DNA of 64,000 bases, from the sequence record NC_054912.1. One strand, given 5' to 3'. The translations under genes and the position numbers were made by a program. Origin of the DNA: Escherichia phage vB_EcoM_F1. A model generated the notes under the pieces. It was not told the origin of the DNA and made no database searches. It saw only the letters and a list, made by a program, of their open reading frames with translations. Shown here one piece after another: positions 18,680-41,870 of the stretch (positions are counted from its first letter, which is position 1; the number at the start of each line of letters is the position of its first letter).

Positions 18680-19567
18680 TTAAGATTTAAGTAAATCAAC
18701 AATTTTAATTAATTTTTCACGCTCAGATTTAGCTTTACTACTCAATCCAGATAGTCTGAAAATTTCATCGTCATACTGTTGAATAGAAATATTCAGCTCT
18801 TCAATTTGCTTATTAAAATAATCAATTTGTTCAGAATGTTTTTCGTTACTACGAACTGGTACAGGTTTTGTAGGTAATTTAGATGAACTGGATTCATCCG
18901 GGCGATAAATTAAAATACAACTTGAACCAATAGGGCATTTTGCACCAGATGAATATTCTAATGTTCCGGCTTCTTTTAAAACTTCAAAAGCTAAACAGAG
19001 ATGATGCCCCATATTAACATAATCAGTAGAGCGAGCTCTGATATAATAATCATCGCCGCGAATACTAAATTTAAAGCATTTAAGGTCTTCTGTATTATTG
19101 GTCTTAAAAATCATTTGTTTATCTAGACCTTTAGCTAATCGAGCGCCTAATGCTAATAATCGTCGTTGATTTTCCCACAAATCCGCAATCATTTGATCAA
19201 ATGATAATTTCGGCATTAGTCGACCATAAAGGTCGTATCCTTTATTATAATTGCGAAGGATTTCACTCGCATTAATACGAGACAATGCTCCAATTTTATT
19301 AAGGGCTTTCATGATGCGATTAGATAAACCCATTCCAGACCCATTTGTTCGTTGTAAATGTTTATCTAATCCAAACCCAATATCAACTTTAAATTTATCT
19401 AAAATTTCAGCATGAACATCTCTGTCAATAACATTCAAATCCAAAGTTGGGTTAAATCTATGAAAAAATTTATCTGGCTCTCCACGACGAAGTACAGTCC
19501 ATTCATTCAATTTTTTATTAACTAAAGATTTAATTACTGCATTGACATTATTAATTACGACTGACAT
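18680..19567 (-). CDS. paralogue D of the four-gene family
   Basis: About 295 aa from MSVV with a GAGGAA RBS; the listed ORF extends to 19588. Confidence 0.55.
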   Translation of the reverse strand: MSVVINNVNAVIKSLVNKKLNEWTVLRRGEPDKFFHRFNPTLDLNVIDRDVHAEILDKFKVDIGFGLDKHLQRTNGSGMGLSNRIMKALNKIGALSRINASEILRNYNKGYDLYGRLMPKLSFDQMIADLWENQRRLLALGARLAKGLDKQMIFKTNNTEDLKCFKFSIRGDDYYIRARSTDYVNMGHHLCLAFEVLKEAGTLEYSSGAKCPIGSSCILIYRPDESSSSKLPTKPVPVRSNEKHSEQIDYFNKQIEELNISIQQYDDEIFRLSGLSSKAKSEREKLIKIVDLLKS

Positions 19568-31864: not shown

Positions 31865-32194
31865 TCAATTAGAAAATAAATTTATCCAAGATTGTTCTTT
31901 AATTAAAAATGGCTCAGAATCATATGCCATTAAACTCTGTGTGATTAGTCCTTTAAAAGGCCCATCAATAAATTCCATGGTAAAATATGGAATTTTATTC
32001 ATTAGCCGTGCATTAGGAGCAGTGCACAAAACTTTGCATCCTTTGAATACGCCTTTTTGCAATTTGTATTGCTTGGGATAAAATTCGCTCAAAATGTTAT
32101 TATTTGCTAAAATTTCAAAATGATTCACCAATTTATTTTTAATAGTTTTTGGTGAAAAATAAAGATATTCGAAAAGCTGTGTGTCTGTCATCAT
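31865..32194 (-). CDS. hypothetical protein (vs.7 position)
   Basis: About 109 aa from the internal Met; ATGA overlap with the upstream gene. Confidence 0.5.
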
Positions 32195-32730
32195 TGCATT
32201 CCGATTACGAAAAACTGTGGACGAGTAATACCACCAATACAACATTTAATATTACAGCAGCAGTGTACAGTGTCAATATGGACACTATAAATCTTATCCA
32301 TATCAGGAGATTTGACAGGCTCATCAATTATATACAAAATTCGCGAAAGCGATAAACCTCTGAACTTGCTTCCTTTATTACCGATAAAACTGCGCACAGA
32401 ATCAGTAAATAAACGAAAACGTATATCATCATTAGAATAACGCGAAAATTCCTTTTTGATGCTATTTGCAGAAATTTTAGCGTAAGCTGAAGTATTAGAA
32501 AGAACAATAACTGTTCCACCGTCATACAACCAATTAGCGGCAAAATTAGTTACTGCAGTTGATTTACCGGATTGACGTCCACCATCTAGTCGAAGTGTGC
32601 AATACTGCTTAAGTAAGTCTTCAAATGGTGGGATATAATCGTTTTTACAAATTTCTTCTACTCTAGCATCAGAATGGTGTGTAAAAGCATTCATCAGGGA
32701 TAGATAAGGACCAGTTAAAAATGTTCTCAT
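32191..32730 (-). CDS. P-loop NTPase-like protein (vs.8 position)
   Basis: 179 aa; Walker A GGRQSGKST and Walker-B-like ILYIIDEP; Cys-rich C-terminus. Confidence 0.55.
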   Translation of the reverse strand: MRTFLTGPYLSLMNAFTHHSDARVEEICKNDYIPPFEDLLKQYCTLRLDGGRQSGKSTAVTNFAANWLYDGGTVIVLSNTSAYAKISANSIKKEFSRYSNDDIRFRLFTDSVRSFIGNKGSKFRGLSLSRILYIIDEPVKSPDMDKIYSVHIDTVHCCCNIKCCIGGITRPQFFVIGMQ

Positions 32731-32882
32731 TTCTTCTCTCTAAGTTTGGGCCATTCCGTGGCGCATGAATTGTCCATTTCTGTATTTACCCATTACCGCA
32801 CTTGGGCTCGACCTTATTACAGGTTGGCGGGAATCCCTCACAAAATCATGAGGTCCAGGTTGTTCCCATATTTCTTATTTGC

Positions 32883-33356
32883 TTATTTGAATGATTTAAC
32901 GTACTGAATAGAACCTTTACTATTCACGAAAGCGATTTTACCATTTTTATTATACATGGTAGCAGTACGCTGATATCCATAAGTTTGCTTACCAGATTGA
33001 TAACCAACTAATGCGAAATTATCTTCACCCATTTTATTCTGTTTAGCGCGAATGCGTTCATGACCATGTGCCATAAGAACCTTAGCATCACCCGTTGCAA
33101 TGGATCTACGAGTTTTTTCATCTTCAACTGTATTAACAAAGTCGTCAAATGAATCAAATTTAGCATGAGATTTATTATACAGTTTTCCATCTACTGCATA
33201 ATTATATCCTTGTACATCCATCTCAACTTCTGTACCATCATCCAATACAGCAGTGATTTTCTGTCCTTTTTTAAATTTCAAAAGATCAGTAAAAGATTCA
33301 GCAATAATTTGAGAATTAATAGCTGCTTCAGTAATAAATTCTTGATATGTTTTCAT
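32883..33356 (-). CDS. head internal protein (IP-type) with capsid-targeting N-terminus
   Basis: 157 aa; N-terminal MKTYQEFITE|A matches the internal-protein targeting sequence and an LxE/IxE prohead-protease site. Confidence 0.7.
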   Translation of the reverse strand: MKTYQEFITEAAINSQIIAESFTDLLKFKKGQKITAVLDDGTEVEMDVQGYNYAVDGKLYNKSHAKFDSFDDFVNTVEDEKTRRSIATGDAKVLMAHGHERIRAKQNKMGEDNFALVGYQSGKQTYGYQRTATMYNKNGKIAFVNSKGSIQYVKSFK

Positions 33357-33392
33357 GTGTTTCCTTTAAATATTTTAATTAGTAACTGTGAA

Positions 33393-33427
33393 TATACTAT
33401 CACAGTTTTAGGAGAAAGTAAACAACT
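33393..33427 (-). promoter_or_regulatory. T4-type early promoter upstream of the IP gene
   Basis: atatactatcacag ... agtaaacaac module. Confidence 0.5.
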
Positions 33428-33958
<531 letters not shown>

Positions 33959-37963: not shown

Positions 37964-38437
37964 TTATTTGATTTGTTTAGCAGACCAAATGCGGTCTTTA
38001 ATAATTTTTTGGATGTCTTCAACATACTCAAGAGAGTGAGCATGTGGGTTATCTTTGAAACTATAAGCACGAGCTAGTTTTTGGCCTTCAGTTTTGATTA
38101 CTAAAAGCTCTTTAAGGATAGCTTCATATTTGGAGATAATTCCTTTAACAATATTTTTCTCTTGTGCGACTTTAGGATCTGCTTTAGGAGCAGGTTTACC
38201 CGAAGCCTTTGCAAAAGCAGCGCCAGTAGCAACTAAACTTTTCCAGGCCATACTAACTGCATTTCCCGTAAATCCTTCCGCTTTCATGTCGCGTGCGAAC
38301 TGGAATCGTGATTCATCAGAAGCATCTTTGTAAGAATATTTACCCGCTGCAATGGCTGCTTTTGCGACAGCTTGAATTTCGGTGCTAGATGCTTCATTTA
38401 ACACCGCTTCATTTAAAAATTGAGTATATGATTTCAT
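37964..38437 (-). CDS. head internal protein (IP-type), second copy class
   Basis: 157 aa; N-terminal MKSYTQFLNE|A targeting sequence. Confidence 0.65.
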   Translation of the reverse strand: MKSYTQFLNEAVLNEASSTEIQAVAKAAIAAGKYSYKDASDESRFQFARDMKAEGFTGNAVSMAWKSLVATGAAFAKASGKPAPKADPKVAQEKNIVKGIISKYEAILKELLVIKTEGQKLARAYSFKDNPHAHSLEYVEDIQKIIKDRIWSAKQIK

Positions 38438-39270: not shown

Positions 39271-39273
39271 TAA

Positions 39274-39939
39274 TTAAAATTTCATTTTTCGACCTTTAAA
39301 CCATCCTTCTGGAATTGGGTCAGTTTTCTTAATACGTTTAGAAACTTTTTCATCTAATGAATGAATCCACATCATACCAAATTGGGAATTCTTTTCACCT
39401 TTCTGGTGATTATTTTTAGCGTGAATTTCTTTCATTTTATTAATAGTTTCAAGAGTATGATGCTTATTTAAAAATCTGCTATTATTTAAAAATTTTTCCC
39501 TGTATTCAGGAGTTGACCACAAGCGTTTAAATACATTTGAACCATGTTTACGATATTTTTCTTGAAGTAAAATATCATTTTTAAAACGTGACTTAAACGA
39601 TTTAGCTCCTTTTAAACTAGCGTCTTTCTTCTGGTTTAGCATCTCAGGAATATTTATATGATCCCATCCGCCTTCACCGCCAAGTTTTAAATTATACACA
39701 TCTGGTCTATTTAAAAACTCTTCTGTGACAATATTTTTCTCGGCTTCAAGCATAGATTCTTTATCATCAAAATATTCTAATATTTCTTTAGAAAAATTTT
39801 CTATACCATACCTGTCTTGGGCTCTTTTTAATAATTTACCAGAACCCATATATCCATCATCTAAATTTTCGGTAGAATGCACACCAATATAAATTTTATT
39901 ATTAATTTTATTTGTTATTTTATAAGTGTAATGGAACAT
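39274..39939 (-). CDS. segB: GIY-YIG homing endonuclease SegB
   Basis: 221 aa; YTYKITNKINNKIYIGVH GIY-YIG motif; sits inside the tRNA cluster as in T4. Confidence 0.85.
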   Translation of the reverse strand: MFHYTYKITNKINNKIYIGVHSTENLDDGYMGSGKLLKRAQDRYGIENFSKEILEYFDDKESMLEAEKNIVTEEFLNRPDVYNLKLGGEGGWDHINIPEMLNQKKDASLKGAKSFKSRFKNDILLQEKYRKHGSNVFKRLWSTPEYREKFLNNSRFLNKHHTLETINKMKEIHAKNNHQKGEKNSQFGMMWIHSLDEKVSKRIKKTDPIPEGWFKGRKMKF

Positions 39940-39980
39940 AAATATCTCCTATTTCTAAGAGTATTTATGTTCCCAAAATA

Positions 39981-41579: not shown

Positions 41580-41870
41580 TTACAAAAGATTTTTTGCAAT
41601 AATTTTAAGCTGAGCTACTGAAATATGCTTGGCTTTAAACAAAGCAGTTTCTTCAGCAGGGGAGATAACGATTGTAGCACCATCTTTCTTAGCGGACCAT
41701 CCATCACCCAGGTAAACAGTACCTTTGACTTCTTCGCCATCAACCAGACTAATCATTGGTTTACCTTCTCGTCCTTTATTTGCTTTAATAACTTCAGAAG
41801 TAAGAGTAGCTTCGGTAATAGTAGAAACCGGGGTAGTTGTAGTAGAAGTAAATTCTTTAAATGTTTTCAT
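41580..41870 (-). CDS. ipI: internal protein I (IPI), injected inhibitor of GmrSD-type restriction
   Basis: 96 aa; targeting sequence ends ...TITE|A, leaving a 76-aa mature part ATLTSEVIKANKGREGKPMISL... that matches IPI* as I recall it. Confidence 0.8.
   Translation of the reverse strand: MKTFKEFTSTTTTPVSTITEATLTSEVIKANKGREGKPMISLVDGEEVKGTVYLGDGWSAKKDGATIVISPAEETALFKAKHISVAQLKIIAKNLL

Follow-up and report, generated by a model that had tools for sequence, protein, structure and literature searches.

What occupies the interval between the lysozyme gene e and vs.8 in Escherichia phage vB_EcoM_F1, where phage T4 carries denV and two internal protein (IP) genes, and is the short stretch next to vs.8, which holds no substantial open reading frame (ORF), a leftover of denV? 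These questions were raised by a prediction made from the letters of a 64,000-nucleotide stretch of DNA of this phage (record NC_054912.1; here called the window), in which the locus was described as harbouring a single IP-type ORF of 157 aa, a gap without an ORF and no denV. The computational analysis reported here leads to a joint explanation in which we place considerable confidence: the locus carries a T2-type cassette with the internal protein gene ip4 (ipIV), and the gap beside it carries a conserved, non-coding, structured RNA, which is most likely a stand-alone RNA.

The ip4 cassette and the absence of denV

A 3.1-kb query around the locus matched the Tequatrovirus Escherichia phage vB_EcoM_FN (MZ170041.1) at 100% identity, and coordinates of the record MZ170041 equal window coordinates plus 32000. 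The whole genome of 168,411 bp was reassembled from the window and four further pieces, the overlaps of which were checked. The flanking genes were recovered by tblastn with the T4 proteins at 97% (e) and 94.5% (vs.8) identity. All genes of the region are located on the minus strand, so transcription proceeds from high to low coordinates. As predicted, a single IP-type ORF of 157 aa (32883-33356, minus strand, start MKTYQEFITEAAINS) is present between vs.8 and e, and the gap of 152 bp (32731-32882) is devoid of ORFs of at least 60 aa; one 33-aa GTG ORF and plus-strand ORFs of 30 and 53 aa are found there. The T4 gene order vs.8 - denV - ipII - ipIII - e, on which the prediction was based, agrees with the annotation of NC_000866.

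The gene denV is missing from the locus, from the window and from the whole genome. With T4 DenV as tblastn query the best E-value was 1.5 in the window and 3.9 in the 168,411 bp, so the gene was not found elsewhere in the genome either, and the denV coding part left no blastn trace in the genome. The same DenV query matched 1119 other phage records by tblastn, which indicates that the search was sensitive enough. Phage T2 is the classical ultraviolet (UV)-sensitive partner of T4, and the v gene (denV) was defined by that difference. Since denV is absent from the genome, the UV sensitivity of the phage analysed here should be T2-like rather than T4-like.

At the T2 locus the order is e, ipIV, gap and vs.8, and denV is absent there too. 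Among the best matches to the 3.1-kb query, NBG2, HY03, AR1, RB18 and ASO78A are collinear without any insertion; 320-740 extra bases holding denV or a second IP gene were found in the other matches teqskov, JK38, ECO4 and ECML-134, with ip4 and denV occurring together in teqskov, JK38 and ECO4 and two IP genes in ECML-134. A junction query of 201 bp, spanning the 3' end of ip4 and the gap, was collinear in 308 of the 528 matching records, which makes ip4 without denV the commonest state among the sequenced relatives and T4 the minority type. The names Ip4 and ipIV are moreover already used in the records of AR1, T2 and PP01. The unusualness of the locus that was implied by the original prediction was therefore not borne out, and sequence comparison identifies the locus as a T2-type allele of the T-even hypervariable cassette between e and vs.8. 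This finding is already known and common: Repoila et al. described the polymorphism of the T-even IP locus as early as 1994 (cited in PMC4122927), and the cassette is one more case of the long-known shuffling of T-even IP genes and of the UV-repair difference between T2 and T4.

The limits of the exchanged block were determined by alignment with T4. Similarity to T4 ends at about 32871, just upstream of GGGAAC (right breakpoint), and resumes at about 33325, inside the codons of the capsid-targeting sequence (CTS) of the IP gene (left breakpoint), so that the exchanged block comprises about 450 bp here (the mature Ip4 part) compared with about 1.4 kb in T4 (ipIII, ipII and denV). On the left side, blastn aligned the upstream region and 5' end of T4 ipIII to 33325-33428 (79% over 120 nt) and the 5' end of T4 ipII to 33325-33371 (93.6% over 47 nt). 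On the right side, records with denV or another upstream gene match the gap query at its positions 1-142 only and lose the bases of the spacer behind the ip4 stop codon. We infer that homologous recombination between the conserved flanks, that is the leader with the CTS codons on one side and the downstream conserved element on the other, would swap the cassette alleles.

Over its full length the protein Ip4 matches Pfam DUF7412 (E 5.7e-96; 319 bits, the cut-off being 27; residues 1-157 aligned to profile positions 1-158) and PHROG 3155, 'internal virion protein' (E 6e-102). It was detected by tblastn in 469 phage records, and homologues at 60-80% identity are present in Klebsiella and Salmonella T4-like phages. 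Among 5.8 billion proteins the family is represented by 14 clusters only, all of them DUF7412, and is thus narrow and phage-specific. No material difference was found to the Ip4 of T2, AR1, PP01 and RB18, which is the same protein (99-100% identity in 289 records) with the same CTS at the same position between e and vs.8; the locus lacks denV in T2, AR1 and RB18.

The CTS of Ip4 is identical to that of T4 IPII and IPIII (MKTYQEFIAE) in 9 of 10 residues. The motif of the prohead protease (gp21), (L/I)-x-E followed by a small residue, is present at residues 8-11 as I-T-E followed by A, and Glu10 is invariant in 13 Ip4 homologues. In T4, the CTS directs IPs into the prohead core, gp21 cuts after the motif, and the mature protein is injected together with the DNA. 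By analogy with T4 IPI-III, Ip4 would be made with the 10-residue targeting peptide MKTYQEFITE, enter the prohead core, be cut after Glu10 by the prohead protease and be injected with the DNA. T4 IPI*, IPII and IPIII share with Ip4 the CTS pattern MKTYQEFI-x-E, the protease motif, the genomic neighbourhood and the DNA of leader and CTS codons, and packaging into the head, co-injection with the DNA and action against host defence are presumed to be common to them. The mature parts have no detectable sequence similarity; the alignment with T4 ipII is weak (33% over 79 residues, E 1.7e-4), and that with ipIII is restricted to the 13 N-terminal residues.

Internal proteins negate host defences in at least some cases, IPI* acting against GmrSD (PMC4122927), and another Tequatrovirus CTS protein, encoded at the ipI locus, is reported to inhibit McrBC (bioRxiv 10.1101/2025.11.20.689424). 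By this analogy Ip4 most likely has an anti-defence function and would block a host defence as IPI* blocks GmrSD. Structural comparison did not help to assign a function: the AlphaFold model of Ip4 (from 13 sequences) reached a pLDDT of 50 and is too poor for use, and a PDB sequence search with Ip4 returned no meaningful relative.

Further CTS-type proteins were encountered in the same genome. A second one, also of 157 aa (37964-38437, minus strand, PHROG 2280), starts with MKSYTQFLNE followed by A; that it is unrelated to Ip4 beyond the targeting peptide, as had been predicted, was confirmed by BLASTP (E 3.4). A third is a 96-aa homologue of IPI (41580-41870, minus strand, PF11634 'nuclease inhibitor', E 1.3e-51) starting with MKTFKEF. 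Outside the window, at 18927-19091 of MZ170041, a 54-aa ORF with a CTS-like start was noticed, the DNA of which is 96% identical over 26 nt to the CTS codons of ipII and ipIII; it may encode a fourth, very small capsid-targeted protein or may be a CTS relic. The predicted set of injected proteins (Ip4, the second 157-aa CTS protein and the IPI homologue) should shape which restriction-type defences are overcome.

A conserved structured element in the gap

The 152-bp gap matches 1031 phage records, compared with 893 for the enclosing 3.1-kb stretch. The element that it contains is present in T4, T2, RB69-type phages, Klebsiella and Salmonella T4-like phages, Vequintavirus and phages of about 47 kb. 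In T4, the same element is positioned directly after the stop codon of the intact denV. In Klebsiella phage KPV15 it is located between two IP genes and has no adjoining vs.8, and in Vequintavirus SophiaRose a 43-nt core, 95% identical, is intergenic beside a tRNA cluster, with a downstream ORF unrelated to vs.8. A covariance model of the core detected exactly one copy in the whole genome, and nothing similar to the element was found in E. coli genomes. Taken with the structural and coding analyses given below, these comparisons mark the element as non-coding, single-copy and structured.

For the structural analysis, loci were obtained by pattern scans of collections (22 viral, 17 metagenomic and 14 further viral loci). 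Matches of an 18-mer in three contigs of bacterial or archaeal metagenome-assembled genomes (L014-L016) were discarded as chance hits, as the seed alone could be aligned. Several sequence types with a near-invariant core and differing flanks were apparent in the alignments A2, A4 and A8. The alignment A5 comprised 19 long-type sequences from T4-like phages, for which a model was used that consists of a 5' hairpin (helices P1 and P2), a core hairpin, two 3' helices and a pseudoknot, the latter formed by pairing of the internal loop of the 5' hairpin with a segment just 3' of the core. In A5, 96.5% of the cells are paired, and 25 double-change cells were counted compared with 5.6 +/- 2.4 in shuffled alignments (0/500). 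The covariation score was 0.129 compared with 0.050 in the shuffled alignments (0/500), and it did not exceed 0.035 when the pairing partners were slid. Covarying pairs are located in P1 (GC/CG/AU), in P2 (CG/AU; GC/AU/GU), in the core (UA/CG/UG/AU) and in the pseudoknot (CG/AU/GC and GC/CG); for example, pair 8:55 of P1 is GC in 16, CG in 2 and AU in 1 of the long-type sequences, and pair 17:53 of P2 is CG in 15 and AU in 4. Moreover, G-U cells are more numerous in sense than in antisense orientation (39 vs 11) and more cells are paired (96.5% vs 92.7%), which favours the transcribed strand.

The window and T4 carry the short type, in which compensatory variants were also observed: P1 occurs as GGGAA/UUCCC and, in L031, as GGGAG/CUCCC, and P2 occurs as CCUCAU/AUGAGG and, in L047, as CCUUAU/AUAAGG. 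At the position of the 3' hairpin Vequintavirus has a different hairpin, UCCAG-GACG-CUGGA. The phages of about 47 kb have an extra closing stem, GUUGUGAC/GUCACAAC, which in L043 reads GUUGUGAA/UUCACAAC.

The core was additionally analysed across all phage groups in the alignment A9 (25 sequences) with a core-only model that includes an invariant bulged G. A first core model from RNAalifold, lacking the bulged G, had contained one covarying pair and was replaced by this model, which explains four. In A9, 96.7% of the cells of the core are paired and the covariation score was 0.288, compared with 0.068 +/- 0.019 in shuffled alignments (0/500) and at most 0.074 with slid partners. Three consecutive pairs vary as CG20/GC5, as CG18/UA3/GC2/AU1/GU1 and as AU16/UA4/UG3/CG2. 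The outer helix of the core thus varies with compensating changes; the invariant parts are the inner helix ACC-U-GU / GC-GGU with its bulged U, the AA and G bulges and the apical GG-UCGAG-CC. Bulges and an inner helix that never change, beside an outer helix that covaries freely, point to a conserved protein or RNA that recognises the sequence specifically.

Some results count against the structural model or narrow it. The single-sequence fold was no better than those of shuffled sequences (z +0.99), which held for either strand; the structure became apparent through comparison alone. Two covarying pairs, both in A5, speak for the pseudoknot, which amounts to a weak 3 bp in the short type of the window and T4. 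When the best complementary stretch was compared with shuffles across all groups, the result for the pseudoknot was not significant (median fraction 0.46), and it is therefore claimed for the long-type alignment only, where it is probable. Furthermore, the T2 core has a G-to-U change in the otherwise invariant apical pair (AATAATGTCGAGCC, L011 1965-2640, NC_054931).

Two observations on the RNA are recorded here in their own right. In two T4-like contigs of IMG/VR (L024 and L033) an insertion of 33 nt is present between the segment 3' of the core and the AUGGAC motif (A5 columns 115-147), so this part of the RNA tolerates an extra domain. The inner helix (ACC-GU / GC-GGU with A and U-G as flanks, 32795-32824) has the sequence of the stem of helix 45 of the 16S rRNA (GUAACCGUAG...CUGCGGUUGG), the 16S sequence having been confirmed with 100% identity in each of the 5426 E. 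coli genomes; this likeness extends over about 5-7 bp, was noticed post hoc, is not distinguished from chance and is not used as evidence.

Role of the element and competing explanations

At the gathering score, Rfam 15 reported only 8 tRNAs over the window and nothing on the element; no match at E <=10 was obtained for 32680-32930, and ARAGORN found no tRNA in the element. A search of the element for promoter-like or terminator-like sites, an expression platform or anti-Shine-Dalgarno pairing was likewise negative. Its genomic context is more telling. In 12 of the 13 loci outside T4-like phages, tRNA genes are located on the same strand at a distance of 50-730 nt; in L043 it is flanked by tRNA-Thr and tRNA-Gly, without a credible ORF, and in L055 it directly follows a tRNA array. 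A link between the RNA and vs.8 was considered and ruled out, as a vs.8 homologue is absent from the Vequintavirus-type loci carrying the RNA. Such tRNA-linked, vs.8-free contexts argue against a leader dedicated to one gene and favour a stand-alone RNA.

In the proposed mechanism the element would be transcribed within the early leftward transcript and act as RNA, being released from the polycistronic transcript in the way that tRNAs and T4 RNAC and RNAD are. The stand-alone RNA would then bind a conserved partner, either a protein or an RNA. Binding of a partner would explain the unchanging inner helix and bulges as well as the upkeep of the element in same-strand tRNA arrays. We give about an even chance to this stand-alone reading, and an even chance also to the more specific proposal that T4 and T2 carry one member of a widespread, so far undescribed family of non-coding phage RNAs. 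The members would share the invariant bulged core hairpin, the covarying outer helix and the probable pseudoknot, and in other phage families their genes would lie within or next to tRNA arrays. They would be released as stable RNAs and act in trans on a conserved partner from host or phage, such as a factor of translation or tRNA metabolism or a nuclease of a defence system.

Known phage RNAs offer partial parallels. GOLLD and ROOL, large, ornate and structured non-coding RNAs often borne by phages, likewise show a tendency towards linkage with tRNA genes. Both are 5-7 times larger than the element and are contained in Rfam, in which the element has no match. T4 RNAC and RNAD (species 1 and 2) are small, tRNA-linked non-tRNA RNAs freed from longer transcripts (PMC3014915; PMC9697503). 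They differ from the element in sequence, and the single occurrence of the core pattern in the window is 6 kb away from the tRNA cluster. According to a review of 2010, no T4 riboswitch or trans-acting small RNA had been functionally characterised and the roles of RNAC and RNAD were unknown (PMC3014915), and a transcriptome study of 2022 mentions RNAC and RNAD only (PMC9697503). The core sequence was not found in the papers searched, and the RNA is probably undescribed so far. If the proposal is true, the element is the first such T4 RNA candidate besides RNAC and RNAD, hidden in a mis-annotated vs.8 start. Being conserved from T4 to Vequintavirus, linked to tRNA arrays and testable in the best phage genetic system, the RNA matters more than the cassette.

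Three points weigh against an undescribed, stand-alone RNA. RNAC and RNAD are demonstrated RNA species, whereas the element is an RNA species predicted by sequence comparison. It may already sit unnamed among the 10,006 candidate viral RNAs that were published in 2023 from the collection also scanned here (PMC10690425). In nearly all T4-like phages, finally, the element ends about 10-25 nt before the ribosome-binding site (Shine-Dalgarno sequence) of vs.8, a position that fits a leader acting in cis. The corresponding explanation, a 5' leader (riboswitch or protein-binding translational operator) controlling the downstream gene, usually vs.8, would also account for the invariant internal loop and bulges, which are typical of ligand or protein pockets. 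We nevertheless regard it as rather unlikely, because the downstream gene varies (vs.8, an IP gene in KPV15, an unrelated ORF in Vequintavirus), because no convincing sense-strand ORF is near the element in the tRNA arrays of L043 and L055, and because none of the regulatory features looked for (expression platform, terminator, anti-Shine-Dalgarno pairing) was found.

Alternatively, the element could bring about cutting of the polycistronic transcript, either as a self-cleaving ribozyme or as a dedicated signal for processing. This would be in keeping with the compact fold, the probable pseudoknot and the invariant unpaired nucleotides, and with a location adjoining tRNA genes, which themselves need excision. 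The lack of a match to any known Rfam class at E <=10 and of an inferable cleavage site makes this explanation distinctly unlikely.

The element might instead be conserved at the DNA level, as a recombination module, an origin or a packaging signal marking the boundary of the cassette. It coincides exactly with the right-hand breakpoint, and the PeSL (promoter-early stem-loop) cassettes of T4-like phages, which combine an early promoter with a stem-loop terminator and likewise border an exchangeable gene module of a hyperplastic region, have been reported to mediate such swaps, similar observations having been made at the IP locus (PMC4122927). PeSLs, however, are dispersed repeats, whereas the element is single-copy, much longer, without promoter or terminator consensus and equipped with covarying helices. 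The multi-helix architecture with compensatory changes and the excess of sense-strand G-U cells also count against this explanation, and the core is kept in unrelated phage families with entirely different flanks. A role at the DNA level alone is accordingly very improbable.

The annotation of T4 suggests yet another explanation, namely that the gap is the N-terminal part of vs.8. In the T4 annotation, vs.8 (NP_049732) has 219 aa and starts from an upstream ATG, and its codons 1-40 are formed by the segment 64793-64912 of NC_000866, which corresponds to 32731-32841 of the window; the frame is open in T4 and would have been inactivated here by a change from TAT to TAG. We attach even less weight to this explanation than to a DNA-level role. 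Of 28 relatives in which the start of vs.8 can be recognised, 27 have the upstream vs.8 frame closed ahead of the conserved core. The distance from the core to the ATG falls into all three phases, and stop codons occur in all three frames. Insertions and deletions in the element have lengths that are not multiples of three, and substitutions follow base pairs rather than codons. The PHROG profile of vs.8 (PHROG 1488, 177 positions) matches residues 3-179 of the 179-aa ORF on its positions 2-177 (E 1.1e-79), that is from end to end, and KPV15 and Vequintavirus carry the element without a downstream vs.8. From the closed frames, the mixed phases, the end-to-end profile match and the vs.8-free loci, the T4 vs.8 (NP_049732) appears to have been annotated 40 codons too long, into the RNA element, so that the RNA finding corrects the reference annotation of T4 vs.8. 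In the same over-extended region T4 has TAT at a position where a stop is present in most relatives, and also an in-frame 9-bp tandem duplication (CTTATAGAG twice).

That the gap might contain a denV remnant left by a deletion, as was considered in the original prediction because T4 denV is immediately upstream of this position, is practically ruled out by the T4 alignment, since T4 keeps the element intact after an intact denV, T4 denV has no tblastn or blastn match in the gap, and the element also lies downstream of unrelated genes and in other phage families.

Coordinates and further observations

The features of the locus are compiled in Table 1.

Table 1. Features of the locus between e and vs.8, given in window coordinates.
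Feature	Position	Strand	Remarks
Lysozyme gene e	33428..33922	-	164 aa; annotated in MZ170041; conserved left neighbour of the cassette
e-ip intergenic leader	33357..33427	-	contains the ribosome-binding site of the IP gene
Leader plus CTS codons			shared left flank for cassette exchange
CTS MKTYQEFITE, codons 1-10	33327..33356	-	translation; ends in the I-x-E motif
ip4 (ipIV), precursor of a 157-aa internal head protein	32883..33356	-	Pfam, PHROG, tblastn
Spacer, 15 nt, from the ip4 stop codon to the RNA element	32868..32882	-	specific to the ip4 cassette; T4 alignment
Conserved structured RNA element (predicted), about 120 nt	32748..32867	-	fixed right boundary of the variable cassette
5' hairpin	32829..32867	-	P1 GGGAA (32863-32867)/UUCCC (32829-32833) enclosing P2
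P2 of the 5' hairpin	CCUCAU (32848-32853)/GUGAGG (32836-32841)	-	compensatory variants
Core hairpin GCCA-ACC-U-GU-AAUAA-GG-UCGAG-CC-CAAGU-GC-GGU-AA-U-G-GGU	32788..32828	-	covariation in 25 sequences
3' hairpin GCCA-CGGAA-UGGC, then CC	32750..32762	-	96% paired in 19 long-type sequences, no covariation
In-frame TAG closing the T4-type vs.8 frame	32740..32742	-	T4 has TAT there (alignment)
vs.8, 179-aa P-loop protein	32191..32730	-	right neighbour of the cassette; true start ATG 32728-32730

Within the tRNA cluster of the window, a stretch of 710 nt (39271-39980, from tRNA-Arg to tRNA-Met) received no tRNA or Rfam call; RNAC/RNAD or a remnant of a homing endonuclease might be expected around there. 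In many other phage records the stretch of the element is unannotated or bears odd names such as 'RegB domain' or 'large terminase'. Two records carry the element under unexpected host names: in MG065666 ('Campylobacter' phage A12a, 135 kb) the RNA region is 96.6% identical to that of E. coli Vequintavirus, and PV654520 ('Pseudomonas' phage vB_PSGBLB0006, 142 kb) contains the T4-type element at 97.4%. The host labels or the assemblies of both records look doubtful.

With regard to the right neighbour of the cassette, the T2 record NC_054931 annotates vs.8 as 110 aa only and leaves about 340 nt unannotated, and vs.8 may be disrupted in this T2 isolate. The vs.8 protein has a Walker A motif (GGRQSGKS), and AAA domains as well as the N-terminal ATPase of T4-type large terminases resemble it weakly, at sub-threshold scores (Pfam E 0.005-0.03; PHROG 2 E 1.9e-6).

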